From positions 1-44,953 of IMG/VR virus record IMGVR_UViG_3300037419_000729: DNA of 44,953 bases; one strand, 5' to 3'. Within the stretch, counting starts at the first letter, position 1. Every line of letters begins with the position of its first letter. The stretch comes from a virus (taxonomy: Duplodnaviria > Caudoviricetes). Both the position numbers and the translations under genes were made by a program. Shown here piece by piece: positions 21,055-44,953 of this stretch. The notes under the pieces were generated by a model, which saw only the letters and a program-made list of their open reading frames with translations, was not told where the DNA came from and ran no database searches.

Positions 21055-21173
21055 GGGGCTCCTTGGGGAACGTGAAGGGGCTCAGGGCCTCCGAACAAGG
21101 GAAACCCTGAGCCCTAAGTTCGGCTGCCAGGTTGCTTCTAAGATGCCGGTAGGCACTAGAGGGAGCTTCTGCG

Positions 21174-21196
21174 TCTCCTTACTAGTGGCGGGTAAT
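21174..21196 (-). promoter_or_regulatory. Phage RNAP promoter (late), ATTACCCGCCACTAGTAAGGAGA
   Basis: 19/23 identical to 32111-32133; T3/T7-like architecture; intergenic before structural genes. Confidence 0.85.
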
Positions 21197-21197
21197 T

Positions 21198-21213
21198 GAC
21201 ACGTTGCCGTGCC
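21198..21213. promoter_or_regulatory. Putative repressor operator (13/16 match to GGCACGTTAACGTGCC)
   Basis: GACACGTTGCCGTGCC, one base upstream of the late phage promoter. Confidence 0.65.
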
Positions 21214-32134: not shown

Positions 32135-32150
32135 AGCACTTTAACGTGCC
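32135..32150. promoter_or_regulatory. Putative repressor operator (14/16)
   Basis: AGCACTTTAACGTGCC, one base upstream of the middle phage promoter. Confidence 0.65.
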
Positions 32151-32152
32151 TA

Positions 32153-34588
32153 TCAGGCGAAGAGGTAAGGGGAGCGGCGGACCTCCTCCAGGTCGAGCGT
32201 CCCTTCCGTTGGGACCGGGGGCAGGGCGGCCTGCCACACCTCCGGCATAGTGGCCGCAACCTCGTCCCGAAACCGGGCGAGGAGGTTGGGCTCATATTGC
32301 TCTACGAACGTGTCCCGGAGAAGTCGGGCCAGCTCATCGGTGCGGCCGGCGTGGGTCGCAAAGCTGTCGTGGATGACACCCAGATAGTCGATGCCGGCCG
32401 CCTTAGCCGCCCGAGCAAGCGCCCGGAGGTGTGCAGCATCAAGGGAGTGGACGTAGTTGGGGGCGATGCCGTTGGCCTGGCCGCGGCCGTCTAGGCTCGA
32501 GCCCTCGAACGAGAGCGTGAGCTTCAAGACCGTGGCCTTCCAGTGGACCTCGACCCGCTCCCCGTAGTTGGTGTGGTAGTCCTGGAGGACCGGGAAGCCA
32601 TCCGGTGTCGTCCACGCCAGCGGGACGTCGGCGTTTGTGGCGACCTTGGCAACCTGGCGCAGCCACTCCATCGCGGAGGTAGCCGCGGCGACCACCTCAC
32701 CAACCGCATCAAACAGGATGTAGGAGAGGTAGTGGGCCGCCGCGTAATTGTCGGCCCCGCCCAGGTAGGGCTCGGCACTCTCGGCATCCAGCTCGTTGAG
32801 GGTCTGGAGGACCATGTCCTGCATACCGTAGCGGGTGGCCGAGTAGACGTAGGTCATGGTCGGTCGCTTGGCGATAGACCTAGTAACCTTGCCACCTCGC
32901 CAGACAGCCGCCTCCGGTCGCTGGTCGTTATCAATCCGCTTTTGCGTCCTCGAGGCGACTTCCTCATAGACGTCGCTCGGAGCTTCGCCGGGAATGAGGT
33001 TGACTGCTCGCGCACCTACCGGGTCGCGAAGCAGCGCCGAGAAGTGCTGGAGCCCGGAGTTGCTCCCGTCGAGCGGGATTGGCAGTCGGCTGACATAGGT
33101 GTCTCCTTCATCGAGATAGGCGGCGAACTCAAAGGCCGAAGCGAGTGCCATCCAGGGGGAGTCGGCGGTCAGCCAGAACTTCTCCCCGTCGAGAGGCGCC
33201 AGGGCGCTGTCGATGAGCTGGCGCGAGTGGGCGTAGGTCCACTCGACGCGCTCCTTGAACGAAACCTTGTCGACCCCGAACAGGTTGGCGATGTGGACCG
33301 CCAGCCAGTAGGCGCCAGACGTCCCGAGCGGAAGCCCGTGGGCGAACTCAAGGAGCGCCTTGCCGCCGTCGTCGGCCTGCGGGTGTATGGCCGTGGCCGG
33401 CATCGGGTAGACCCGGCCGCGGAAGTCGAGAGCGTGAGGGAACCATATGGCCGCCTCGTCGACGAACTTACCGGCAATCCACAGGCGCTGCTGTGTCTGG
33501 AGGCGCTGGCTGAATAGCTGGGCGTTGGCCTCATGGATGGTGGCGGCCCGGCGCTTCCACTCCGTTCGGGCTGCCTCATCCGTGTCGAAGTCGATGGGCT
33601 TGCCCGGCAGCGGCTGGTCGTCGCGTGGGGGTAGGCCCCCGAGGGTGCCGCCGTTGTCCCACAGTTCCCGCATGACATCGAAGACCTTGCTGTTGATGCG
33701 CCATGGCGTCTCCTGGATGTGGTTCACGGCCTCGTAGACTTTGCTGAGGTCGGCCGCGTCGAGGAGCTGGAGATACTTGGCATCCCACCGCTTAACGAGC
33801 GGGTGGTTGGGCAGGCGACGGAGGTAGCCTCCAACCCGGTGCGAACGCCAGCGGCGAGGGCGGACGACCATAGGAAGGAGCAGGGGCTCGAGCAGCGCCG
33901 AGCGGTCGTGCTGGCGGGACAGCCACTGGCTCACCGCCTCGGACGGACGGAGGTAATAGCCCATTCCGGCGCCTCGGGGTCGGGTGTCCAGCTCGAACAG
34001 GCCGGTGGAGTCGAGGAACAACTCGACGACAATCATCCCGAGCCGCAGCTTCTCGGCCTTCGGGATGGAGGTCCGGCTGTCTTCTCCTTCCAGCATCTTG
34101 CGGATGGCGTTGAGGCGTCTGGCGCTGGTCCGGGCGCGGCGGCCCTTGCGAATGAGCCCCGCATAGCCGGCAGGGTTCTTGCCGCGGAACGTCACCATGT
34201 CGACGTGGTCGATGATGGCGGTGGCCGCCTGGATGGCGGTCGATTGCAGGGTGGCCCGGACGGCCGCCATGTTGAGGACCGTTCGAGCGGTCAGATAGGC
34301 GACCTCCTCGGGCCGAGCGTTCTCCAGCCACTTTACTGCGGAGTGGCGCTTGCCGGCCTTGCCGCTGTTGGCGCCTTCGACCCAGGCCGTTATGGCCTCG
34401 GCTGCGGGCTTGATGGCGAGCCTTAGGAGATGCTGGCCGGGCGGAAGGTTCGCTTCTTCGTCGGCTGAGCTGTTCTCTCCGGACCACGGCATGGGGCGCT
34501 CGCGGTTATAGCGGGCGATGCCGAGCGACCGGCTTTCCGCTTCGAGGTCAAGCTCTCGTCGGACGTCTTCACGATAGAGGGGTCTCAA
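32153..34588 (-). CDS. Single-subunit DNA-dependent RNA polymerase (T7 gp1-like), probable TTG start
   Basis: DFRGRVY, DGSNSGLQH, RSIAKRPTMTYVYS, APNYVHSLDA, IHDSF motifs; GGGGAG RBS before TTG 34588. Confidence 0.97.
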   Translation of the reverse strand: MRPLYREDVRRELDLEAESRSLGIARYNRERPMPWSGENSSADEEANLPPGQHLLRLAIKPAAEAITAWVEGANSGKAGKRHSAVKWLENARPEEVAYLTARTVLNMAAVRATLQSTAIQAATAIIDHVDMVTFRGKNPAGYAGLIRKGRRARTSARRLNAIRKMLEGEDSRTSIPKAEKLRLGMIVVELFLDSTGLFELDTRPRGAGMGYYLRPSEAVSQWLSRQHDRSALLEPLLLPMVVRPRRWRSHRVGGYLRRLPNHPLVKRWDAKYLQLLDAADLSKVYEAVNHIQETPWRINSKVFDVMRELWDNGGTLGGLPPRDDQPLPGKPIDFDTDEAARTEWKRRAATIHEANAQLFSQRLQTQQRLWIAGKFVDEAAIWFPHALDFRGRVYPMPATAIHPQADDGGKALLEFAHGLPLGTSGAYWLAVHIANLFGVDKVSFKERVEWTYAHSRQLIDSALAPLDGEKFWLTADSPWMALASAFEFAAYLDEGDTYVSRLPIPLDGSNSGLQHFSALLRDPVGARAVNLIPGEAPSDVYEEVASRTQKRIDNDQRPEAAVWRGGKVTRSIAKRPTMTYVYSATRYGMQDMVLQTLNELDAESAEPYLGGADNYAAAHYLSYILFDAVGEVVAAATSAMEWLRQVAKVATNADVPLAWTTPDGFPVLQDYHTNYGERVEVHWKATVLKLTLSFEGSSLDGRGQANGIAPNYVHSLDAAHLRALARAAKAAGIDYLGVIHDSFATHAGRTDELARLLRDTFVEQYEPNLLARFRDEVAATMPEVWQAALPPVPTEGTLDLEEVRRSPYLFA

Positions 34589-34998
34589 TCGCCGCTCCCC
34601 CTCGTCCGTTCGAGGGTGGCGCGGGCGATACGCAAAGCAAAACGCCGGAACGCCTGAGAACCGAGCGGGCCGTTCAGAATTAAGCCAAGTGCCCCCCGCA
34701 GCTCCGAGATGGCCGCGGCTTGCTGTTCGAGGAGGGTGGCGGCGCGATAGGGGGCATCGCTTTCTTCGCCAGTGTTCCCCGAAATCCATCCGCTGTTTCG
34801 CAGTTCCGCGACAATCTCCCCTGTTGCAGAGGGTGTCGGTTGGGGGCGGGTGTTCCATGCGGCGATTGCTTCGTTCTGGAAGGCAAGCGAGCCGATAAGG
34901 AAGTCACCTGGCTCAACGTGCATCGTCAGTTGCCGGCCGCGCTTCATCGGGGCGCCGCACAACGGACACGGCAGAAGCTCTTTCGATACGTCAGTCAT
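34585..34998 (-). CDS. Lar-like (restriction alleviation) domain protein
   Basis: ELLPCPLCG...EAIAAWNTR motif; the second CxxC is missing. Confidence 0.6.
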   Translation of the reverse strand: MTDVSKELLPCPLCGAPMKRGRQLTMHVEPGDFLIGSLAFQNEAIAAWNTRPQPTPSATGEIVAELRNSGWISGNTGEESDAPYRAATLLEQQAAAISELRGALGLILNGPLGSQAFRRFALRIARATLERTRGSGD

Positions 34999-35159
34999 TG
35001 CTCTACTCCTTGCAGCGCCTCGATGTTGTCCTCGAAACGGCGGATGTCGTTGGTCACGGTCCTCCGCTCGGCTTCCGTTCTAGCTCTCTGGAGGCGGAGA
35101 GTGGCACGTCGAACTGAATTTCGGTTCCACTCGATGACGTTCTTGGTGACGTGGTCCAT
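34995..35159 (-). CDS. Small coiled-coil hypothetical protein
   Basis: AAGGA RBS before ATG 35159; 54 aa. Confidence 0.65.
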   Translation of the reverse strand: MDHVTKNVIEWNRNSVRRATLRLQRARTEAERRTVTNDIRRFEDNIEALQGVEQ

Positions 35160-35193
35160 GATGTTCCTTTGGCATGGGGATGACTGAGAAGTA

Positions 35194-35209
35194 GGCACGT
35201 TATCGTGCC
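35194..35209. promoter_or_regulatory. Putative operator, best match (15/16), upstream of the RNAP operon
   Basis: GGCACGTTATCGTGCC near-perfect palindrome in the integrase-RNAP intergenic region. Confidence 0.7.
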
Positions 35210-35336
35210 AATCGTGCCAGAGCGGCTCGGCGTGGCTGGGTGCCGTTGGCACCCTTGGAAAACTGGAAGATTTTCCGCTGGAAACCGCCGATGAGGGCGC
35301 ACAAAAAGGGCACCAACATCGACGGCCTTGAGCGAA

Positions 35337-36560
35337 TTATTGCAGGCTCACCGTGCCTGGGTTGGCACGGATAGCTGCGGGTTTCGGGACAGACACGGTT
35401 GCAGGCTTGGTGCGAGTAGCAAACCTATTCGCACCGGGTGTGCCAGTGTTGAGGATGTCGAGGCCGCCGACGAGGTCGGACGGGATGAAGTGGAGATACC
35501 GCTCCGAAGTAATCTTCGGGTCGGAGTGTCCGGCCCAGAGCTGGAGCCGCGCCAGGTCCATCCCTCCGCGGGCCAGCCGGGTGAGGGTGGTGTGGCGGAT
35601 GGTGTGGAGAGTGACGTCGCTCAGGTCCATTCCGGTCTCACGCTCAACGTCCTCCTTAATCTGGCGGAACATGACGCCGGCCAGGTTCTCGGCAAAGCCG
35701 AAGAAGCGCCACTCGCCGGTCGCCCGGTCGAGCGTGAGGTGGTCCATCAGTGAGCCCAGACCCTCAACCGACCGATGCGCCAGCGGGAGCTTGCGCGGCT
35801 TCCCGGACTTCGTCCGGTAACGAGGGAAGGTGACGAAGGTCATCCCTCCTTCCTGGGTCAGGGACTTTGGGCCTAGGTTGATGGTCTCGCCCAGCCGACC
35901 GGCCGTGTCGAACAGAAGCCCCAGCAGGACCCGGAACTTGAACCACTGGCGGTTCGGCTCGAGCTGGCGCCGCTTCTCGACGGCGGCCCACATGGCCTCT
36001 TCCTCTCGCGGCTCGATAATGCGGTCCTTGAGATTGTTGACGACGACCGTTGGCATCGCGGGCTTGGCCCGGAGCAGCGGAGCGCCGGTCTCGTCGGTCC
36101 ACATGGTCGCCATCTTGAGGGCCTTGCCGACCATCGCCAGCTTGCGCTTGATGGTGGCGGGTTTGTAGCCACGGGTCTTCATGTCTGTGACGAGCTGGTC
36201 GAGCCGGGTGTAGGTCATGTCCTCCACCGGAACGTCGCCAATGAGGCCGTTGAGGACTTTGACGTTGGACGTGATGGTCCGCTGGGAGCGCACGTTGTCC
36301 GGGTGCCAGACTGTGAGCTGGCACTTGTCAAACAGGTCCGACATGGTGAAGCGTCCGGCCCGTGAACGTGCCTTGGGGGTCGACGGCGACACCGCAGCAC
36401 CGCGGACCCCCAAGACAACCTCCCGCCCGGCAATACGCACGTCGGCGGGAGGGTTTCTCTGCGGAGGCGTCTTGATACCCGTCGAGACACGCCGACGCTT
36501 GCCCTGGTCGTCCTCATAGTCGACGACCCAGATACCGTTGGGTTTCTGACGGAACTTCAT
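35337..36560 (-). CDS. int: Tyrosine recombinase / integrase
   Basis: Catalytic R (TAGRLGE), K (TKSGKPR), HxxR (HTIRHT), H (AGHSD), Y (ERYLH); N-terminal arm-binding RRRVSTG. Confidence 0.95.
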   Translation of the reverse strand: MKFRQKPNGIWVVDYEDDQGKRRRVSTGIKTPPQRNPPADVRIAGREVVLGVRGAAVSPSTPKARSRAGRFTMSDLFDKCQLTVWHPDNVRSQRTITSNVKVLNGLIGDVPVEDMTYTRLDQLVTDMKTRGYKPATIKRKLAMVGKALKMATMWTDETGAPLLRAKPAMPTVVVNNLKDRIIEPREEEAMWAAVEKRRQLEPNRQWFKFRVLLGLLFDTAGRLGETINLGPKSLTQEGGMTFVTFPRYRTKSGKPRKLPLAHRSVEGLGSLMDHLTLDRATGEWRFFGFAENLAGVMFRQIKEDVERETGMDLSDVTLHTIRHTTLTRLARGGMDLARLQLWAGHSDPKITSERYLHFIPSDLVGGLDILNTGTPGANRFATRTKPATVSVPKPAAIRANPGTVSLQ

Positions 36561-36563
36561 GGC

Positions 36564-36767
36564 TTACTCCTTTGGATATAGGCGGTCGCGGATGCGGCAT
36601 AGCCAATAATGCTCTGGAGATTTATCAAAGAGGTCTTCGATATATCCGTCGAGCCATAGCTTCTCCGTGCGGAGGGCTACGCGTTGGTCTAATGCCTTCT
36701 CTCGAGAAAGCTGTCGCCTTCTCTCCGCATCCACAACGAACGGGCTCTCACACTCGGCCCCTCTCAC
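36564..36767 (-). CDS. Small hypothetical protein in the lysogeny cassette
   Basis: 67 aa; GTG start overlaps the repressor stop. Confidence 0.55.
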   Translation of the reverse strand: MRGAECESPFVVDAERRRQLSREKALDQRVALRTEKLWLDGYIEDLFDKSPEHYWLCRIRDRLYPKE

Positions 36768-37237
36768 TGTGTCCGCCTCTTGTTCGGCATGGTGATTGGC
36801 TCGAGCGCAAGAAGCGCCCCGTCAATGACGGCCTTGCCCTTGTTGGTCAGCCGGAGGAACTGCTCCCGGCTGTCGTCCGGGTTCTCCTCGGTGGTCAGCC
36901 AGCCGAGCGCCTTGGGAAACACCCGGCTGGGCTCGAGGAGCTGCCGGTAGGTGTTCCGGACGGAACCCCCGAAGTTGTCGCCATACGCATGGATGAGCTG
37001 GGTCCGGGTGGCCGGCTTGCCAGCGGCATCGGCGGTCGCCGCCAACATGAAGAAGGCGGCCTGGGTCAGGCTCAAGCGGTCAGACGCAACATCAGACAGG
37101 TAGAGCAGGAACGCCGATGAGGCGCCCAACTCTCCGACGCGCTTCCAGAGCGGCGTGGATGAAACACTCCTCATCATATCCGTGCCCCCCATAATCGGTC
37201 CCTGCGCGCCCGCCTTTATCTGTGCAGGCATCTTCAT
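36764..37237 (-). CDS. MarR-type winged-helix regulator, putative repressor; start uncertain (37279/37237/37177)
   Basis: LSLTQ...GWL..EENPDDSRE..LRLT.KG wing motif; next to integrase; GAGGAG RBS. Confidence 0.8.
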   Translation of the reverse strand: MKMPAQIKAGAQGPIMGGTDMMRSVSSTPLWKRVGELGASSAFLLYLSDVASDRLSLTQAAFFMLAATADAAGKPATRTQLIHAYGDNFGGSVRNTYRQLLEPSRVFPKALGWLTTEENPDDSREQFLRLTNKGKAVIDGALLALEPITMPNKRRTQ

Positions 37238-37340
37238 AATACTCCTCTTCTGGGCCGAATGTATCGGCCTCCATTCCATTCGTCATAAAACTAGTCCCCG
37301 CCCCGTGGCTGATTAATGGTCTTATTTCGGTGACTGACAC

Positions 37341-37369
37341 GTTATCGGGACTGGCACGAAAAGTGTCAA
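37341..37369 (-). promoter_or_regulatory. Sigma70-type promoter for repressor/integrase (TTGACA-N17-GATAAC), overlapped by operator-like sites
   Basis: -35 at 37369-37364, -10 at 37346-37341; operator-like GACACGTTATCGGGAC at 37336-37351. Confidence 0.65.
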
Positions 37370-37497
37370 CCCCGACTGCGTCAATAAAAGTTAATTCTCG
37401 ACTCCCCACACACCCCACTTTAGCGGGGCAATTCCCCGTGGCTGGGGACGGCGGGTGGACTTGGGTCAGAAGGCTCGGGCTCTGCCCGCCGTTACTC

Positions 37498-37785
37498 TCA
37501 GCGGCCACAGTCTTCTCCCGTGAGTTCGAGGAGGCCGGACGGGGCAACCCAGGCCAGCTTGCCGCCCCGACAAAGATAGACGTCGGGAGCCGCATCATCG
37601 TCATCGACCGGAACAATTTTAGGCGAAACCGATTGCCAGGCCCCACCGACTCGTTCGAGGCGGGAGTCAATCGGCCCCATCTGCTCCTCAACAAACTTCT
37701 TGGAAACCGCTGCTGCAATTTCCGCATCATCCGCCTCGACGACGACACGAACGAACACCGGAACGTCCACCGTAAACTCTCTCAT
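37498..37785 (-). CDS. Hypothetical acidic protein
   Basis: 95 aa, GGAG RBS. Confidence 0.65.
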   Translation of the reverse strand: MREFTVDVPVFVRVVVEADDAEIAAAVSKKFVEEQMGPIDSRLERVGGAWQSVSPKIVPVDDDDAAPDVYLCRGGKLAWVAPSGLLELTGEDCGR

Positions 37786-37889
37786 GTTGACACTTCTCCC
37801 GCTCTTATGGTCGCAGCCGGTATCAGCCCGCCCCCACCCAGCGCGATGAGCTGAATGAGGGCGGGTCGTTCCCAGCCACGGGAAACTGA

Positions 37890-37976
37890 TTAACCTGGGT
37901 TGGGGCCGTCGCTGTCGAAGGTGGCGACAGATATGGCACAGTAGATGGCGATGATTAGGAGGATTACTGCGAGCAC
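37890..37976 (-). CDS. 28-aa membrane peptide (not in ORF track)
   Basis: GAGG RBS, GTG start, MLAVILLIIAIYCAISVATFDSDGPNPG. Confidence 0.45.
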   Translation of the reverse strand: MLAVILLIIAIYCAISVATFDSDGPNPG

Positions 37977-38374
37977 TTGAACCTCAACCTCCTTTCAATA
38001 TCGTCCAGAACGTCCGGGTCTATAGCCTCCGCGAGGTCGCGCTCGACTCGGTAGACCTCCACCCCATCGACCCGAACCGAAGCTAGGTAGGGGTGGGCTG
38101 CTCCGCGGCAGTCGTAGCCCTCGATGTGGACATGATGGACGGCGGCCTTGCTCCAGCCACGTCGCATCAGCTCCGCCCGGAGGCGGGCGTTGACTACGCC
38201 ACAGGTTGGGCAAGTGCAGACCTCCTTGTCCTCTCCGCTAAGGGTTGAGATAAGTTTCTCAATCCCCTCCGATGCGACGTTGGCATATGGGTCCGACTGA
38301 GCGTCCCATTCGACGGCCGCCTGGGCCGTCTTCGCGAGCTTCTTGACCCGCTCGATGTGGTCGAGTGTTGTCAC
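37964..38374 (-). CDS. Hypothetical protein with CxCxxC motif
   Basis: GTGA overlap with upstream stop; 136 aa. Confidence 0.6.
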   Translation of the reverse strand: MTTLDHIERVKKLAKTAQAAVEWDAQSDPYANVASEGIEKLISTLSGEDKEVCTCPTCGVVNARLRAELMRRGWSKAAVHHVHIEGYDCRGAAHPYLASVRVDGVEVYRVERDLAEAIDPDVLDDIERRLRFKCSQ

Positions 38375-38709
38375 TTTCTCTTTCCATTCCTTGACAGTGC
38401 CCGCACGGCAAAGCTCGGCAGGCTGGCGGCCCCACTGGCGACAGCGAAGGCGTGACCTCGCTCCCACTCATCCCGAAGGTCGGGCGAGCCGTAGGGGTTG
38501 GCGGTCATCCCGCGCTCGGCATCGGAGCGCCCGAGCAGAAACGCGGGGGTCTCGTTGTCGTTTGAGGGCGGCGTGATGTGGTCGTTGAGCCAGGCCAGAA
38601 GGCGGGGCTTGTCGGTCGGAACGTCAACCGGCTCCCAGCCTCGGCCGTCCTTGCGGGCCTCGTCTTGGCGACCAACCCAGGTTCCCTTGGCGGTGCGGTA
38701 GAGGCGCAT
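38371..38709 (-). CDS. Hypothetical protein, C-terminal Rmf/CrpP-like motif
   Basis: AF..G..DA..G...NPY......EW..G pattern. Confidence 0.6.
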   Translation of the reverse strand: MRLYRTAKGTWVGRQDEARKDGRGWEPVDVPTDKPRLLAWLNDHITPPSNDNETPAFLLGRSDAERGMTANPYGSPDLRDEWERGHAFAVASGAASLPSFAVRALSRNGKRK

Positions 38710-38873
38710 TAGTAGACGTCCCGCCAGAAGGTAAGCCGGTCGGCTAGGTTGGCTCCGGCGTCGTAGGCCTCATTCCAATCCTGATTAGTTTCGTGGGTGC
38801 GTCCGAAGGCATCTCCGAGCGTCAGTCGCTCCCAGAATCCTTGTGCGTAAGCGAAGATGAGAGTGTCACGCAT
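38709..38873 (-). CDS. Small hypothetical protein
   Basis: AGGAG RBS; 54 aa. Confidence 0.6.
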   Translation of the reverse strand: MRDTLIFAYAQGFWERLTLGDAFGRTHETNQDWNEAYDAGANLADRLTFWRDVY

Positions 38874-39045
38874 TTGCCTGCTCCTGTGGCTGGGGTTTTG
38901 AGCCGTGAACGGTGAAGTAGATGATGGCCTGGTCCAGCTCCTCGATGACTTCGCGGTGTTCCTCACGAACACTGTCTTCTTCGTTCTCCCAGGCGAGAAG
39001 CGAAGCCTCGGCTGCGGCAAGCAGCCGTTCAGTTGCGTAGTTCAT
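38866..39045 (-). CDS. Small acidic hypothetical protein (not in ORF track)
   Basis: AGGAGG RBS, ATGA overlap with the TrxR-like stop; MNYATERLLAAAEASLLAWENEEDSVREEH... Confidence 0.65.
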   Translation of the reverse strand: MNYATERLLAAAEASLLAWENEEDSVREEHREVIEELDQAIIYFTVHGSKPQPQEQANA

Positions 39046-39998
39046 GCGTGTTCCTCCTGTGGCTGGGGCTGCGGATTGAGATGCTTCCAGACGGCGGGGA
39101 CGCAGCTCGCTCCCTCGCCGACCGCGTTGGCGACCCGCTTGACGGAGCCGCTGCGGACGTCGCCCACAGCATAGAGGCCAGGCGTATCCGTCGACTTGTC
39201 CTCGTCCGTGATGACGAACCCGTGTGCATCGAGAGGGCAGAGCCCCATCAAGAACTCCGAGTTGGGCTTTGCGCCAATCATCACGAACAGGTCGGAGACC
39301 GGCAGCCGCTCGGTAACGTGCGTGTCGAGCCCGAGCAGGAGCAGCCGTTCCAGCGCCTCGCCGCCCTCGGCATGGGCGATGACCGTCCGCCGATGGATGG
39401 TGATGTTCGGGTGGGCCTCGATGCGCTCGATGAGGTAGTGCGACATGGTCTCGGTCAGGCTGTCGCGACGGACTATTAGGTGGACGTGCTTGGCCCGGTC
39501 AGCGAGGAAGACCGCGGCCTGCCCGGCGCTGTTGCCGCCGCCGACGACCGCCACCGAGCCTAGCTTACGGCCGTGAATGGTCTGGGCGGTGCAGGCATAG
39601 TGGACTCCGTGGCCCTCGAAGTCCTGGACGTTGGTCTCTGGGGCGAGCTTGTTGTAGCGAGCGCCGCTGGCGATGATGACCGCTCGAGCGCGGACGATGG
39701 TCCCCTTCTTGGTGACGAGGATGTAGCCAGTCTGCGAGCGAGCGAGGGCTTCGACCGTGCATTGGATGGTGTCGACCCCAAACTTGTCGCACTGTGCGGC
39801 TGCGAGGTGAGTGAGGTCCGGCCCGGAGACGCCCTTCGGAAACCCCATGTAGTTCTCGATGAGAGAGCTGGTGCCGGCCTGCCCGCCCTTCTCGGCGCAG
39901 AGCATGGCCGTCGAAAGGCCCTCACTGGCAGCGTTGAGTGCGGCGGACAGGCCAGCGGGGCCGCCGCCGATGACGGCGACGTCATAGGTGTCGGGCAT
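39042..39998 (-). CDS. Thioredoxin-reductase-like FAD/NADPH oxidoreductase lacking the CxxC motif
   Basis: GGGPAG FAD motif, GGQAGTSS.IENY.GFP, GGGNSA NADPH motif, GDVR...KRVA.AVGEG; active-site region reads HYACTAQT. Confidence 0.9.
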   Translation of the reverse strand: MPDTYDVAVIGGGPAGLSAALNAASEGLSTAMLCAEKGGQAGTSSLIENYMGFPKGVSGPDLTHLAAAQCDKFGVDTIQCTVEALARSQTGYILVTKKGTIVRARAVIIASGARYNKLAPETNVQDFEGHGVHYACTAQTIHGRKLGSVAVVGGGNSAGQAAVFLADRAKHVHLIVRRDSLTETMSHYLIERIEAHPNITIHRRTVIAHAEGGEALERLLLLGLDTHVTERLPVSDLFVMIGAKPNSEFLMGLCPLDAHGFVITDEDKSTDTPGLYAVGDVRSGSVKRVANAVGEGASCVPAVWKHLNPQPQPQEEHA

Positions 39999-40020
39999 TG
40001 ATGGTCCCCTTTGTGGCGGG

Positions 40021-40272
40021 TCAGAGAGTGTGGTGAAGCGTGTCCTCTGTCGGGCGGTCTTCGGCCTTGCGAAGAAGTCCGCGCTGGAGGAGGTCGTTGG
40101 CGGTGCGGCCGAACCAACCTTGCAGCTTCCACACTAGGCCAGTGTCGACGAGGTGCTGCCAAGCCCGCATGGTGGTATCCGGGTCGGCTTCGGCAAAGCC
40201 TTCGGCAATGCTGACCGCGTCGAAGTCCGTTAGCGGGTCGTCTCGGAGTTCGAGGGTTTGCTTATGGAGCAT
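40021..40272 (-). CDS. Conserved small early phage protein
   Basis: GGGGAG RBS; WQ.LVDTG..W.LQG.FGR.A motif. Confidence 0.75.
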   Translation of the reverse strand: MLHKQTLELRDDPLTDFDAVSIAEGFAEADPDTTMRAWQHLVDTGLVWKLQGWFGRTANDLLQRGLLRKAEDRPTEDTLHHTL

Positions 40273-40297
40273 GATGGTCTCCCTGGGGCGGGGTGGG

Positions 40298-40810
40298 TCA
40301 AATCAGATAGGCGCGGCCGTCATCGCCAACGTAGGTCTCGACCTTGGGAAAGGCGGTGCCGTGGCCGACGAGCGCGGAGAGGTCATAGCCAAGACCGACA
40401 ACCGGGTCGCCGCCTTCACCGTAGGTGAAGCTCCGGTCCCAGAAGCCAGCGCCGTGGCCGTTACGGGTTAGCCAGAAGTCGGTGGCCGCCTTCTCAATCG
40501 TGTAGGGCCCACCGTCGGTCCAGAGGTCTCCCAGACCTATCTGGCTGGCGATGATAGGTTGGGCTGCGAGAATGAACCGGTCTGCATCGGCCAGCATGGC
40601 GGAAATCTGGCCGTCACCCCATCCTCCCGGACCTTCAACGGTGAGGTCGAGGCCGGTGAGGTCGCCGTCCGGCCACCCGTCCGTGAAGCTGATGGCCTCC
40701 AAATAGCCAGCGAGAAATCGACGGAGCTTCTGCCGGTCGACCGTGTAAAGCAGCTCACTTCCAGTGACGGGCAGATAGGTAGCGAGCACGTCATCATAGT
40801 GGACGTTCAT
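40298..40810 (-). CDS. Conserved early phage protein
   Basis: GGAGG RBS; DFWLTRNGHGAGFWDR motif. Confidence 0.8.
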   Translation of the reverse strand: MNVHYDDVLATYLPVTGSELLYTVDRQKLRRFLAGYLEAISFTDGWPDGDLTGLDLTVEGPGGWGDGQISAMLADADRFILAAQPIIASQIGLGDLWTDGGPYTIEKAATDFWLTRNGHGAGFWDRSFTYGEGGDPVVGLGYDLSALVGHGTAFPKVETYVGDDGRAYLI

Positions 40811-40837
40811 TTCTGCCTCCTGTGGCTGAGGTGCGGG

Positions 40838-41074
40838 TCAGGCCGCTTTGTCGAGCGCGATTACAGCGTTACGGGCGCGGCGGCACTCGTTGGCTTCCGC
40901 CAGAGGGACGAGCGCCATGCTGGGGTGGCCGGCATTGAGAGCGGCTAGTTCGGCTTCGACCGTTCGCCTAAGGTCGAGCGCATGGTGACGAGCACCGCGG
41001 GTGAAGTTGGGCGAGCGGGCGATGGTGTCGAGCCGCTGGCGAGCGAGGTCTAATAGGGTTTCATACGCGAGCAT
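40838..41074 (-). CDS. Hypothetical protein
   Basis: AGGAG RBS; 78 aa helical. Confidence 0.6.
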   Translation of the reverse strand: MLAYETLLDLARQRLDTIARSPNFTRGARHHALDLRRTVEAELAALNAGHPSMALVPLAEANECRRARNAVIALDKAA

Positions 41075-41215
41075 ACGACGCACTCCTGAGTGAGAATGAA
41101 GTGAATATCGCTGGCGTGGTCAGGCTTCGTGCAGATGACGAGCAGCGACAGGGCCGCGAAGGAGACGCGGCAGCGCGTGAAGAGGAACACGGCTCCCTCC
41201 CGTGGCTGGTGGGGT

Positions 41216-41398
41216 TTAGAAGCCCTGTTCGGTGACGTGCCGTTCGACCTCGGCCAGAGCGTAGTCGAGCCCGTCGAGGTTCATCTTGACGCTGGCAACG
41301 AGCGGGTGGCCGGTGGGCAGGCCCTCGAAGTCCTCACGGGCCGCGAGGGCAGCTTCTTGCATCCGTGAGACGCGGTCGGAGAGTGGTGTGTCGAACAT
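41216..41398 (-). CDS. Hypothetical protein
   Basis: 60 aa, AAGGG RBS after CAGCCAC motif. Confidence 0.65.
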   Translation of the reverse strand: MFDTPLSDRVSRMQEAALAAREDFEGLPTGHPLVASVKMNLDGLDYALAEVERHVTEQGF

Positions 41399-41431
41399 TA
41401 GTAGTTCCCTTCTGTGGCTGGGCGGTGAAAC

Positions 41432-41881
41432 TTAGGCGGCGAGAGGGTGCGTAAGAGGCTCGCTCTTTAGGAGCCGTGCCCGGTCACGCCGGAATAGAAC
41501 CTGATACTGGCCCTTCTTCACATCGCAGTCGGGACACTCGTAAATGTCGAGCGTCATCCCGAACTTGGCGAAGTCAGGCAGGGCTTTCGGAGGAAACCAA
41601 TGGTAGAATTGGGCGAGGTCAACGCACCCAACAACCCACTGGCCAGGGTCAGGCAGAACAATCTCCGCCAACCCCATTTCATCGAGCAATTCGGTGGTCG
41701 AATTGTCCAACCCAAAGACGTCTTTGAGGTGATGCGGGTGAGCCTTATCGAGCCCAACTAGGGCTCCCGGCTCAACCTTTATCCAAGGGACGTGTTGCCA
41801 CATCCCGCGAGCCTCGGCTTTATTAGTAATGCCGACGAATGGCCCTTCACGGTCTGCGTTCTCCATCCGATAGATACGCAT
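41432..41881 (-). CDS. Hypothetical early protein, possibly ADP-ribosyltransferase-like fold
   Basis: IYR.E...GPF start, GC..L.Q..HWF, G..QV.F C-terminus. Confidence 0.7.
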   Translation of the reverse strand: MRIYRMENADREGPFVGITNKAEARGMWQHVPWIKVEPGALVGLDKAHPHHLKDVFGLDNSTTELLDEMGLAEIVLPDPGQWVVGCVDLAQFYHWFPPKALPDFAKFGMTLDIYECPDCDVKKGQYQVLFRRDRARLLKSEPLTHPLAA

Positions 41882-41911
41882 GATGTTTCCCTTGTGGCTG
41901 GTAAAGGGTTG

Positions 41912-41927
41912 GGCGTGTTAACGTGCT
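41912..41927. promoter_or_regulatory. Putative operator (13/16), intergenic in early region
   Basis: GGCGTGTTAACGTGCT. Confidence 0.5.
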
Positions 41928-41929
41928 TG

Positions 41930-42529
41930 TCAGGCGAGAAGGTCGTTAAGGACGAGTTCGCCGGTCGAAGGGCGGACCATGACGTTGCCGGGGTGGGCGT
42001 CCCAATCAACGCCCCAATCGTCCATTGCGGCCTTCAAGGAGCGCAAGGCGTCCTTCATCGGCCCGTTTCGGCCAAACTTGATACGCCGTTCGTTCTCGTT
42101 TGGGTTCCAGCGGCTCGACCATTTGCGATACTCGTCCGGCCAAGTGCTCTCATCCTCCCACTCGAATTCATCGCTATCTTCTACGAATGAGGTGAGGCAC
42201 TCCGCTTCGTAGGCGAAATCATAGTCTCCATAGAGGTCGATGACCCCGTAAATCTTCGGAAGATGCGGATTGTGGGGATTGGCAAGAGCCGCATCGACGG
42301 TCGCCCGCTGACCTTCTCCGTCCGCAAACTTGAGCACTCGCGAGCGGTCAGGTGAGATAAAGACGTTGGTAAAGGAGCCGTCGCCAACTGGCTTCCACCC
42401 TTCTCTCATGAGTCCCGTGAAAACCTCTTCAAGGTCGCAGTCGGGAGTGACCTTGGTGCCAATGGCATAGGTGCCGGGACCACGTGGCGGGAGCCCGAGG
42501 TCGAGTTCGGGTTGAGGTTGAGGTTGCAT
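41930..42529 (-). CDS. Serine/threonine protein kinase (T7 gp0.7-like kinase domain)
   Basis: GDGSFTNVF Gly loop, VLK, NPHLPKIY, DAHPGNVM catalytic loop, LND. Confidence 0.88.
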   Translation of the reverse strand: MQPQPQPELDLGLPPRGPGTYAIGTKVTPDCDLEEVFTGLMREGWKPVGDGSFTNVFISPDRSRVLKFADGEGQRATVDAALANPHNPHLPKIYGVIDLYGDYDFAYEAECLTSFVEDSDEFEWEDESTWPDEYRKWSSRWNPNENERRIKFGRNGPMKDALRSLKAAMDDWGVDWDAHPGNVMVRPSTGELVLNDLLA

Positions 42530-42558
42530 GATGTTTCCCCCGTGGCCGGTGAGGGTTG

Positions 42559-42798
42559 CTAGGCGAGGCCGACGTGGCGCTTGGCCGTGGCAAGCTGGCG
42601 AGCGGTCAGATAGTAGGGGTGTTGTTCGTCCCAGACGATGAACCCCCGACCATGCGGCTCCGCAGCGGCGACTTCGTCAGCCCAGAACTGAGCAAGCAGC
42701 CCTTCGCCGTCCTGCTGGTCGAAGATGACCATTTGATTGTGAGCATCATCCTCACGAATTAGGTTCTTGTCCCGATTGATGCGTCCAACTCTGTCCAC
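42559..42798 (-). CDS. Hypothetical protein
   Basis: AAGGAG RBS; 79 aa. Confidence 0.65.
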   Translation of the reverse strand: MDRVGRINRDKNLIREDDAHNQMVIFDQQDGEGLLAQFWADEVAAAEPHGRGFIVWDEQHPYYLTARQLATAKRHVGLA

Positions 42799-42822
42799 AA
42801 CAAATCTCCTTTTACGTTAAGG

Positions 42823-43170
42823 TCAGGCGGCGTTCGCCAGAGGCGGCGCTAGGCGACCTCCGTCGAGCGTTAGGAATTGTGAGGGGTCGAATGGACCCCA
42901 TTCGAGCGAGTTAGGCCCGATAAGGTGCCCATCGTGCCCGTCCCAGACCGCTATGGCGTCCTGTTGCAAGAACCGTGCGACCTCATAGGCGGCGGCGGTC
43001 GAGAGCGGGTGCCGCAACTCGGCAATGAGGGTCGGCTCGCTGTCGATGTTGTGGACCGTGGCGGCGGTCGCAGCTTGGCCCGATATGACAGCCAGCGCGG
43101 CCAGAGCATGGCGCGGAAGTAGCAGCTTGCCCTTGGCGTCCAAGCCGATGTTGACGAGGGTCTTAGGCAT
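42823..43170 (-). CDS. Putative S-adenosylmethionine lyase (T3 SAMase-like)
   Basis: NIGL, SEPTL, LQQDAIAV and LIGP...WG.F.P motifs; early position; GGAGG RBS. Confidence 0.6.
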   Translation of the reverse strand: MPKTLVNIGLDAKGKLLLPRHALAALAVISGQAATAATVHNIDSEPTLIAELRHPLSTAAAYEVARFLQQDAIAVWDGHDGHLIGPNSLEWGPFDPSQFLTLDGGRLAPPLANAA

Positions 43171-43324
43171 GGCAGCACCCTCCGTCGTCGTCCCATCGGG
43201 ACAGGTCGTGATGGTCAGCGTCATGGGTGCGCTTGGCGGCCGTGAGGTCGCGCTTGGCGTCCCTCTTGGCGTCGGCAGCGCGCTTGCGGGCGGCGGCCCA
43301 TGAACAAAAAGCATTGGCAATCAT
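43163..43324 (-). CDS. Small basic early protein (not in ORF track)
   Basis: AAGGGG RBS; MIANAFCSWAAARKRAADAKRDAKRDL... Confidence 0.5.
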   Translation of the reverse strand: MIANAFCSWAAARKRAADAKRDAKRDLTAAKRTHDADHHDLSRWDDDGGCCHA

Positions 43325-43325
43325 G

Positions 43326-43481
43326 CTAGGCCCCTTTCCGTGCCTGTTGGTTTCTAGCGGTCAACTCCGCCCAGATGACAGCCGTTTGGCTGGCGTTGGC
43401 TGGAAGCCGGATAGCGTCCCGGAGTTGTTCATCCGAAAGGTGCCGCAGTCCCGGTGAAGGGTGCTTGCGTCGAGCGACCAA
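43326..43481 (-). CDS. Small early protein (TTG start)
   Basis: AAAGGGG RBS; LSDEQL motif. Confidence 0.5.
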   Translation of the reverse strand: MVARRKHPSPGLRHLSDEQLRDAIRLPANASQTAVIWAELTARNQQARKGA

Positions 43482-43509
43482 TGTCAGACCCCTTTCCGTG
43501 CCTGTTGTG

Positions 43510-43665
43510 TCAGCAGCCGAAGGCGACACGGCTCAACGCATCGTCCTTGGCCCTGCGGGCGGCGACGGCGAGGTAGCAGGCCACCTTACGTTCGTTGACG
43601 GTGAGCGGCTGGCCGCGAAGGGCCTTTTCGAGCACTGACAGTTGTGCGTAGTCAGCGATTGTCAT
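43510..43665 (-). CDS. Small early protein
   Basis: AAGGA RBS before ATG 43665; 51 aa. Confidence 0.55.
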   Translation of the reverse strand: MTIADYAQLSVLEKALRGQPLTVNERKVACYLAVAARRAKDDALSRVAFGC

Positions 43666-43678
43666 TGGCAGCCTATCC

Positions 43679-43831
43679 TTAAAATCCGATACGGCGTCCC
43701 ATGACGTCGGTGACGTCACAGCCCCGTTCCTCGGCATATTGCTTTCGGGCTTCCCAGACCGTCCGCGATAGATATGTCACCGGCTCGGGCTGGGCTTTCG
43801 TCCAGACTTGAACGACATAATAGCCGCCCAT
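43679..43831 (-). CDS. First early gene, 50 aa (not in ORF track)
   Basis: Perfect AAGGAGG RBS; MGGYYVVQVWTKAQPEPVTYLSRTVWEARKQYAEERGCDVTDVMGRRIGF. Confidence 0.7.
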   Translation of the reverse strand: MGGYYVVQVWTKAQPEPVTYLSRTVWEARKQYAEERGCDVTDVMGRRIGF

Positions 43832-43844
43832 AATGGCCTCCTTT

Positions 43845-44635
43845 GAGGGGTTGCTAGGGGAGTGTGGGATACGGCTGCGAGCCAGTGACGAATTACGTCC
43901 CTAACCGTAGCTAGGGCAAAACGTGCCTGTCGGTTCAGACGCACACTCCCCAAGGAACCCCTCCGTCCCCTTCACACCTCCTTAGGTTCCAGTTTGGCGT
44001 CTGTGCCGCGCCTTCACGGTCGGAGAGGGGACTAGGGTTTCCCTTGTTCTTCTCGCTTCGCGCAGTTTCAGACGCTAACGGTGGTCGCAAGCTAGGTCCG
44101 CCTTTGGCACCCCTAGAGCTTCCACTACTCGCATGGCCCTGCCCTCTACGCACCCGTTAGGATACGCTTAGACGCACGTCTGTTACTCCCGTGCCCTTGG
44201 CCTGCTCTCCGCACCCCTTGGCTTTCGGACCTTGCGGGCACCGTCAAAGCGGGACCCTTCCCGGACCTAGCTACGGCTCGCGCCGTAACAGCCTACTCAT
44301 GCGAGATGGTTCCTTATAGGACCATGCAAGGCGACCCTTGGCTTTCCCAAGGCGGGCCGCGACCCTGCCTAGTTTCGGCTTCCGGTGGCCCGCCGCATAT
44401 CGCTGGCAAGGGCCGGTTGGCCGACTAAGGGGCGACTAGGGAGCCCCATTGCGTTCCGTCCGTCCCGCCTCACGGCGGCGGCTTGGCGCGGCTCTAGGGA
44501 CTTAGGCCCAACTCCAGTGGTCTAGCGCGGCTGTCGCCGAAGCAGTCGCCTTGTTGCGCCTTCCAACAGGAGCCTTGCGGGCTGCCCTAGAGGCCGCTCC
44601 GGAGCCGTTCGCCTAGCGTCGGGCTGGCCGGAACA
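43845..44635 (-). ncRNA. Candidate large (~800 nt) structured non-coding RNA / early leader of unknown class
   Basis: No credible ORF; several GNRA/UNCG tetraloop hairpins read correctly on the minus strand; multiple long-range helices; lies between a promoter and the first RBS. Confidence 0.65.
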
Positions 44636-44641
44636 GGTGAC

Positions 44642-44670
44642 TTTATGGGCCTAGCACGTTTCCGGGTCAA
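44642..44670 (-). promoter_or_regulatory. Early host sigma70-type promoter TTGACC-N17-CATAAA, overlapped by an operator-like site (44653-44668)
   Basis: Canonical 17-bp spacing, upstream T tract, position at start of genome. Confidence 0.65.
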
Positions 44671-44826
44671 GCCCCTAATCGGGCCTAACCGTCAAAAAAA
44701 TGACAACCCATTGAAACGGCGCCCTTCTTTTTTCTTCTGGCGGCTCCGCGGCTGGCCTGATGGGCACCGAATGGCGACCTGATGGCAGCGCTAGGGCCAG
44801 CACCAACAAAAGCAGGGCGGGCCAAC

Positions 44827-44953
44827 CACAAGCCCGATGCAACCGGCAGGGCGGGGCAGGCCGCGCATACGCATGTCCGCGCCGACAAAGAGCCTAGCGC
44901 CGCCCCATGCGCCCCCTTTGTGCCACACCATCGGCAGTCTCCCGCCCGCCCCC
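44827..44953. repeat. Terminal direct repeat, copy 2
   Basis: Exact match to 1-127. Confidence 0.9.

Follow-up and report, generated by a model that had tools for sequence, protein, structure and literature searches.

A conserved structured RNA at the head of the early transcript of temperate T7-like phages and its predicted antisense link to the late operon

Why should a phage place about 800 nucleotides without a credible gene at the very start of its early transcript, and could the RNA made from them have a function of its own? The locus that raises this question occupies positions 43845-44635, minus strand, of a 44,953-nucleotide stretch of viral DNA (IMG/VR record IMGVR_UViG_3300037419_000729, here called the window), which is a complete virus record with direct terminal repeats. 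The genes of the window are all on the minus strand and include those for a T7-type RNA polymerase, an integrase, a primase-helicase, a DNA polymerase, the portal and capsid proteins and both terminase subunits; the interval forms the left end, ahead of the first early gene. The window's closest relatives with a name, judged by polymerase identity, are Caulobacter phage S2B (53%) and phage jiawei (50%), and the sequencing runs that contain the stretch are soil and rhizosphere DNA metagenomes. The integrase was found in none of 301 sampled Pseudomonadota genomes. The jiawei record (L003, OR464703.1) states a Mycobacterium host, a label that may be wrong, since its gene order and proteins fit Caulobacter phage S2B and the window clade.

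Boundaries and folding of a gene-free interval

A sequence-only reading had described the interval as non-coding, with an early promoter at one end and a ribosome-binding site at the other. The longest open reading frame lying wholly inside it is of 72 amino acids and has no PHROG match, in agreement with the first of these statements. Both flanking elements are likewise present in the sequence, but the promoter does not appear in the output of a strict sigma-70 scan, which lists no site in 34000-44953; as such, the call of an early promoter is founded on its location and on the resemblance of elements that precede the same start motif in four homologs (L004, L006, L012 and L319, introduced below). 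The elements at this end are as follows.

44642-44670, minus strand: early promoter-like element TTGACC-17-CATAAA, presumably read by the host polymerase, called from sequence, with similar elements in L004, L006, L012 and L319
44653-44668, no strand assigned: operator-like palindrome GGCACG-N4-CGTGCY with 2 mismatches, overlapping the -35 box; putative repressor-binding site
43679-43843, minus strand: ribosome-binding site and first early open reading frame, 50 amino acids (AAGGAGG before ATG 43831)

Within the promoter-like element, TTGACC (44670-44665) and CATAAA (44647-44642) are separated by a 17 nt spacer, and the RNA start lies 6 nt downstream of the -10-like hexamer; in L004, L006, L012 and L319 the corresponding elements stand 5-6 nt upstream of a conserved YGUUCC start. 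The palindrome GGCACG-N4-CGTGCY is matched 30 times against 16 expected, has a perfect copy at 35194-35209, and is also found in the early promoters of L004 and L006. Its copies at intergenic sites and promoters include 35194-35209, 32135-32150, 21198-21213, 44653-44668, 43329-43344 and 643-658, and from sequence it is likely the operator of the regulator encoded at 36764-37279. Given that the early promoter overlaps the operator-like palindrome, the RNA would be tied to lytic growth.

Further into the early region, the protein encoded at 42823-43158 belongs to a clade-wide family, and a distant homolog of it gives a sub-threshold match to S-adenosylmethionine lyase (E 2e-5); it may be an anti-restriction enzyme. 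Some 45 protein clusters reach at least 50% identity to the early protein that neighbours the RNA. A FAD-dependent pyridine nucleotide-disulphide oxidoreductase, an unusual cargo in a T7-like phage, is encoded at 39042-39998 and is also kept in G001, G003 and G004.

With respect to folding, the seven tetraloop hairpins noted earlier are all where they had been placed. Loops of the GNRA or UNCG type closed by at least two pairs number 15 in the interval, against a shuffle mean of 5.9 (0/500 shuffles reach 15), a maximum of 12 among 55 same-size windows elsewhere in the genome and 7 on the plus strand; the excess is reduced or missing in L004 and L012. Folding energy, which had been put forward as a check, offers weak support and does not single out the interval, for although the interval as a whole has a z-score of -2.5 on each strand, local windows are ordinary: the six 120-nt windows wholly inside it score 0.26, 1.56, -0.86, -1.21, -1.06 and 0.25, against a genome mean of -0.72. 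No Rfam family matched at its gathering score, and up to E 10 only chance-level matches were returned for the window and four homologs, so that the interval has no confident family hit.

Homologs, domain structure and covariation

A polymerase search yielded relatives at 68-70% polymerase identity, among which syntenic homologs of the interval are L004 (G001), L006 (G003, for which three more contigs hold identical copies) and L012 (G004). Two more came from metagenomes searched by terminase: L319, a complete homolog, and L322, which holds the 5' part only. The homologs represent four related temperate T7-like phage lineages and one partial copy, with RNA lengths of 516-842 nt and a mean column identity of 58% (first four sequences). 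Searches of the complete S2B, jiawei and G005 genomes did not find the RNA; G009 and G010, whose left ends are missing, are uninformative on its presence. A blastn comparison with cultured phages and plasmids returned no further homolog, nor did an alignment scan by terminase among the rows listed. Scanning viral contigs by pattern (one scan covered 27 of 64 parts) gave only the known lineages and chance matches, those at L327 and L332 being rejected on inspection; a scan of genome contigs gave one locus, which is unrelated; and a covariance model of domain B recovered only its five training sequences in 456 kb. The RNA is not described in the literature searched, which took in few subscription journals, and its modules were not matched in the searched part of the candidates of Fremin et al. 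2023 (29-151 nt; PMC10690425), whose remaining supplements could hold one.

The features of the RNA, from its 5' to its 3' end, are these.

44595-44635, minus strand: P1, the 5'-terminal hairpin and most sequence-conserved stretch
44511-44573, minus strand: domain B, an irregular hairpin with an AA/AGA loop and more conserved internal loops, identified by covariation
44368-44447, minus strand: H-type pseudoknot (stem 1, 44447-44443 with 44433-44429; stem 2, 44440-44435 with 44373-44368)
44331-44360, minus strand: GAAAG-hairpin helix, identified by changes in variant contigs and also present in L006
44128-44330, minus strand: helix X (44330-44323 with 44135-44128), identified by covariation, closing a multi-helix domain with a conserved GGAGUARCAGA loop
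44081-44125, minus strand: domain Y with apical GUGCCAAAGGC, a possible second contact to the late leader
44034-44049, minus strand: seed with near-invariant ACAAGGGAAACC, antisense (16/16) to 21093-21108
43965-44032, minus strand: helix Z, identified by covariation
43845-43963, minus strand: 3' stem T, enclosing about 75 nt, a putative RNase III processing stem

Helices were anchored on invariant motifs and their pairs counted by offset, and since there are five related sequences and the helices were picked by hand, the counts are to be taken as support rather than proof. Domain B has 66/70 cells paired in five sequences, with a double change in 11/14 columns; helix X has 24/24 cells paired in three sequences (double change in 4/8 columns), domain Y 18/18 in a three-sequence subgroup (2/6), and helix Z 33/35 (5/7, in a register set by hand). 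For stem T the motif-anchored count is 76/85 cells paired with a double change in 5/17 columns, and an independent count from a MAFFT alignment gives 88.8% of 80 cells paired and 4 pairs with a double change, a covariation score that 0/500 shuffles reached. Of 120 permutations of the arms, 1-6 equal the true matching (for X and Y, 1 of 6), and scores fall when registers are slid. P1 is near-identical in L004 and L006, bears a compensatory change in L319 and is shortened in L012, and several distinct variant contigs align there. The H-type pseudoknot, which also covaries, lies directly 5' of helix X in six of six homologs with different sequences, its geometry having been chosen after inspection; 30-61 of 300 shuffles per sequence also give one. 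Stem T is a conserved duplex of about 20 bp, as an RNase III processing stem requires. T7 early RNA is processed by RNase III, genuine sites of which fit their consensus loosely, according to the relevant passages of PMC5371410.

Variant contigs refine this picture. In the 44360-44331 helix, one such contig carries two compensatory changes and one consistent change, and another carries one compensatory change; elsewhere, one GNRA loop is swapped for another GNRA. Among the variants listed, changes at 44191, 44257 and 44388 break predicted pairs unless their partners also changed. The long-range helices proposed from the sequence fared unevenly when set against these data. Six of the seven lie where they had been placed, whereas CAGACGC is at 44003-43997, not 43993-43987 (10 nt off). 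The 3' stem (43963-43942 with 43866-43845) and GUCCCCU/AGGGGAC are both favoured by covariation, but the changes in the variant contig break three pairs of the GGCGGGCC/GGCCCGCC helix, where its competitor at 44360-44331 gains its two compensatory changes. Three further proposals fare less well: GCGUCUG/CAGACGC loses one base in a variant, the 10-bp GCUAGGUCCG/CGGACCUAGC helix has a possible 7-bp counterpart in L004 and none in L006, and CAUGCGAG pairs conservedly with CUUGCAUG (44330-44323) and not with CUCGCAUG. By inspection, every one of the five full homologs offers that 5' arm of helix X two complements, one local and one distal, which may represent a folding intermediate or a switch.

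The RNA is also modular. L319 has no domain B, and L004, L006 and L322 carry a second TTGACA element after domain B. Between the 5' domain and the RNA core, L004 (1765-1860) and L012 (1194-1286) hold hydrophobic open reading frames of 30-31 amino acids with ribosome-binding sites, for which no PHROG match was found. Second, tandem copies of stem T, each around a short structured insert, are seen at L004:2331-2426 and L012:1805-1909. The inserts of the first stem T are alike in L004 and L012, even though the central domains belong to different subgroups, which suggests module exchange. An extra copy of the stem T 3' arm lies at 42550-42570 of the window, 1.3 kb downstream, and similar extras occur in L004, L006 and L012. 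The first early gene downstream of stem T is not the same between homologous lineages.

The covariation found among homologous leaders, at the motif-anchored helices and stem T of five related sequences, supports a large, conserved and folded RNA as the opening of the early transcript, complete with a pseudoknot and a 3' stem of the RNase III type, in line with the folded RNA proposed from one sequence. On this comparative evidence, we take the structured RNA region at 43845-44635 to be real and conserved, and it belongs to none of the catalogued families.

Complementarity with the late leader

Each RNA was searched for antisense matches against its own genome, and the seed was found to be complementary to a site in the leader of the late operon, where the window has the following elements.

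21183-21202, minus strand: predicted late promoter of the phage polymerase, at the same place in 4 genomes and single copy in the window
21122-21130, minus strand: CUGGCA element in the late leader that may partner the Y loop, found in 4/4 genomes and altered in G007
21078-21114, minus strand: terminator-like hairpin preceding the first late gene (ATG 21054), with the predicted target of the seed in its loop and 5' arm

Perfect antisense complementarity at the same syntenic site extends over 16/16 nt in the window (E 0.007), 19/19 in G003 (E 1e-4), 12/12 in G001 (E 1.9) and 11/11 in G004, and no other syntenic antisense site of at least 12 nt was seen when each RNA was compared with its own genome. 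The site is about 560-600 nt upstream of the portal gene (three genomes), and the seed and target loci are 22-23 kb apart. In all four genomes the target hairpin has 15-17 bp, lies 75-95 nt past the conserved promoter-like element and stands just before the first late ribosome-binding site. We take the promoter at 21183-21202 to be of T7-type appearance; in G001 the opposite strand carries in addition a 26/27-nt copy of the predicted late promoter, near the genome end and about 950 nt ahead of where the RNA starts.

The core ACAAGGGAAACC is invariant in four lineages and matches at 11/12 positions in L319. Its flanks change together with the target (GAAC/GUUC, GAC/GUC, CCACAC/GUGUGG and GCAC/GUGC), with 20 of 24 flank cells pairing; since the core itself is invariant, the covariation between seed and target comes from few flank columns. 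Only four genomes have both RNA and target, and these are related. By both pair count and summed energy (-135.6, next -127.2), no other of the 24 permutations does as well as the true matching of RNAs to targets, and the cognate site ranks 1/3143, 2/3222, 1/3326 and 1/3206 among windows, the seed boundaries having been set after the match was seen. At the G001 target, the cognate seed (-26.6) has no advantage over the seeds of L006 (-26.5) and L319 (-26.9). Taken together, we regard antisense pairing between the early RNA and the late-leader hairpin as well supported by sequence comparison.

Whether the hairpin is open or closed bears heavily on the predicted outcome. When the 3' arm is removed from the target, all four genomes gain 11.9-20.9 kcal/mol on cofolding; with the hairpin finished, cofolding favours pairing in only two of the four, and in the window and L004 the hairpin stays closed. 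Predictions of seed accessibility are mixed, and the seed can also pair with the 5' arm of stem T. A second contact between the Y loop and CUGGCA is weak, 55, 20, 1 and 27 of 500 shuffles doing as well. As to the hairpin itself, its stem is strong in all four genomes and the 8 nt that follow contain 3 T in the window, 5 in L004, 6 in L006 and 5 in L012, the 3 of the window making a poor tail by the standard of intrinsic terminators. At the same place, a hairpin followed by a U-rich tail is seen in five phages that are more distant, none of the five with the loop motif, which two further clade records do carry; in the three of these five that are complete, the RNA was not found. From its position and its counterparts in relatives, the hairpin at 21078-21114 is likely a terminator.

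Proposed antitermination, its rivals and known systems

The conservation of structure, the complementarity, its covariation and the position of the target are observations; transcription, processing, termination and the direction of the effect are what we infer from them. It is reasonable to postulate that the early RNA acts as a trans-acting RNA antiterminator of the late operon, a proposal to which we give an even chance on the sequence evidence. The host polymerase would transcribe the RNA from the operator-overlapped early promoter only upon infection or induction, and RNase III would cut stem T to free it from the early mRNA. The seed would then pair with the 5' arm and loop of the nascent late hairpin before its 3' arm is made, possibly after pre-tethering through the Y loop, such that the terminator would not fold and transcription would run on into the structural genes. 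Antitermination is ranked first because pairing is favoured in all four genomes without the 3' arm and in two once the hairpin has formed, as co-transcriptional capture predicts; by the same token, it needs capture during transcription, given that the finished hairpin stays closed in the window and L004. An antiterminator had been among the guesses of the sequence-only reading and is the class that we favour, and the evidence narrows it to a mechanism that had not been seen then, pairing in trans with a terminator-like hairpin 23 kb away. For the ribozyme and anti-defence decoy also guessed at, nothing was found in support. Antitermination leaves the need for 500-800 nt of structure unexplained, as do all models for the whole scaffold. 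The broader proposition, to which we lean slightly less than evenly, is that of a new class: a large, pseudoknotted natural trans-acting antiterminator that would replace a Q-type protein, two guides docking it to the nascent late leader, with late expression needing both the phage polymerase and a repressor-controlled RNA.

Control could also run in the reverse direction, the main rival but one that we consider unlikely, with a short RNA from the late promoter to the terminator binding the large RNA and so shutting down or remodelling the early transcript, or with the large RNA acting as a sponge for the short one. A short RNA made where a late promoter is followed by termination can have a regulatory role, as StxS does (in the portion of PMC7547250 that treats it), and the alternative pairing of the seed with the 5' arm of stem T also speaks for this reading. 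Late promoter-terminator units are also seen in jiawei (L003:21880-22030) and S2B (L340:9100-9241). The jiawei unit has a C/U-rich stretch antisense to the ribosome-binding regions of its own earlier genes (matches of 16, 14, 12 and 11 nt); of 10 matches with E <=1.1, 4 end 3-10 nt upstream of a start codon. The S2B match, of 11 nt, covers the RNA polymerase start. This suggests that the jiawei and S2B units are an unreported small RNA that shuts off earlier genes and, by extension from the jiawei matches, the promoter-terminator unit may be a small regulator across the group with the large RNA as its target or sponge. In the window clade, however, the complementary bases of the finished short RNA are mostly within its 15-17-bp stem, cofolding with that finished hairpin favours pairing in only the two genomes noted above, and the genes that follow stem T vary by lineage.

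Less probable again is repression or cutting, in which the RNA would delay late expression by recruiting RNase III to its duplex with the late leader, or act as a guide-directed ribozyme with the seed and the Y loop as exon-binding-like guides. The predicted duplexes are of 12-22 bp, the two possible guides occur in the same 5'-to-3' order as their targets, and a large pseudoknotted scaffold would suit catalysis; yet no group II domain 5 or other ribozyme model matched, and sequence conservation is low (the 58% mean column identity given above), with domains lost or swapped among lineages. We place marginally below this a role independent of the target, the RNA serving mainly the early operon in cis, as a put-like antiterminator, or binding proteins as a scaffold or decoy akin to ROOL and GOLLD, with the complementarity secondary. 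P1 and domain B follow directly upon the early promoter, as does putL in the passages of PMC9378689 that describe it, size and pseudoknots resemble those of large phage RNAs of unknown function (PMC12286853, in part), and the seed leaves most of the structure unexplained. Such a role nevertheless gives no account of covariation between loci 22-23 kb apart, and L319 lacks B while L012 has a shortened P1. It is very improbable that the interval is just a usual left end free of genes, where promoters, operators and RNase III stems are found and structure is incidental: local folding z-scores are ordinary, S2B and jiawei also have gene-free left ends of 400-500 nt and the helices were picked after the sequences had been viewed, but the motif-anchored helices covary, independent variant contigs carry compensatory changes, tetraloops are in excess and the pseudoknot is there in six of six.

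The near-invariant early-RNA segment antisense to a terminator-like hairpin of the late operon is what is new here. Large ornate bacterial and phage RNAs are mostly without a known target, and this one has a covarying, testable partner 23 kb away. The activation of an operon by an RNA that opens a terminator in trans is a design from synthetic biology. If antitermination is true, a natural RNA switches on an operon in this way, and an RNA gate is added to the lysis-lysogeny control of T7-like phages; even with the direction reversed, there would be a new conserved RNA-RNA link from early to late transcription. Furthermore, the seed-loop pairs could serve as orthogonal regulators for single-subunit polymerases.

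Several known identities were weighed against the early RNA. Some of its short motifs recall, to our eye, group II domain I, a resemblance that found no support. A group II intron, whether canonical or circularly permuted, was rejected, there being no domain 5 or 6, no conserved catalytic triad and no reverse transcriptase open reading frame, and RF00029 gave no match in the window genome, versus matches in 5 of 14 control genomes. P1, the sole AGC-bearing hairpin, was rejected as domain 5, with ACC in L004 and L006 and a shortened form in L012. A domain I-like internal pairing, GGCAC/GUGCC (or GGGGAC/GUCCCC), is possible in five of five full homologs but competes with a conserved local hairpin, and a variant contig alters one of its bases. 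The likeness to group II introns is one of size (PMC8637638, the portion consulted). A 6S-like rod is the minimum free energy fold of the 5' domain in three lineages, but L319 and L012 do not fit, and a pRNA-like packaging role is unneeded given that a small terminase is encoded.

ROOL, GOLLD, OLE and raiA share with the early RNA a large size, pseudoknots and a variable 5' part, as well as a phage origin in the case of ROOL and GOLLD, and differ in that no antisense target is named for them in the part of PMC12286853 that bears on this. Their models gave no match up to E 10 in the window, L054, L046, L057 or L319. While ROOL and GOLLD are often beside tRNA islands, ARAGORN found 0 genes in the five loci scanned, with neither tRNA nor tmRNA. 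The put RNA of HK022, of about 70 nt, has two stem-loops, acts in cis by binding the beta' zinc-binding domain and, in the passages of PMC9378689 that describe it, involves no terminator pairing. It too is a phage RNA just after an early promoter that is linked to antitermination without a dedicated protein; the early RNA, in contrast, has 516-842 nt and many domains. P1 and B alone could be put-like, but L319 is without B.

In lambda, Q acts at PR'/tR', where a promoter followed by a close terminator gates the late operon and an early product opens the gate (PMC7547250, in the portion that covers it). The window likewise has a late promoter with a close terminator-like hairpin and an early product that is predicted to open the gate. 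Unlike Q, a protein that modifies the host polymerase, the predicted effector here is an RNA that would act by pairing, in a phage with a T7-type polymerase. RNAIII of pT181, through attenuation, and the CI RNA of phage P4 are short natural antisense RNAs that alter terminator folding in a nascent leader, both of them promoting termination; the early RNA is predicted to do the opposite, and 23 kb separate its locus from its target. STARs are synthetic small transcription-activating RNAs, separate short engineered RNAs that pair with the 5' arm of a terminator and prevent it from folding. The early RNA resembles them in being complementary to the loop and 5' arm of a terminator-like hairpin at a separate locus (4/4 genomes), and differs in being a natural, pseudoknotted RNA of 500-800 nt in a phage early transcript, with the phage's own late leader as its predicted target.
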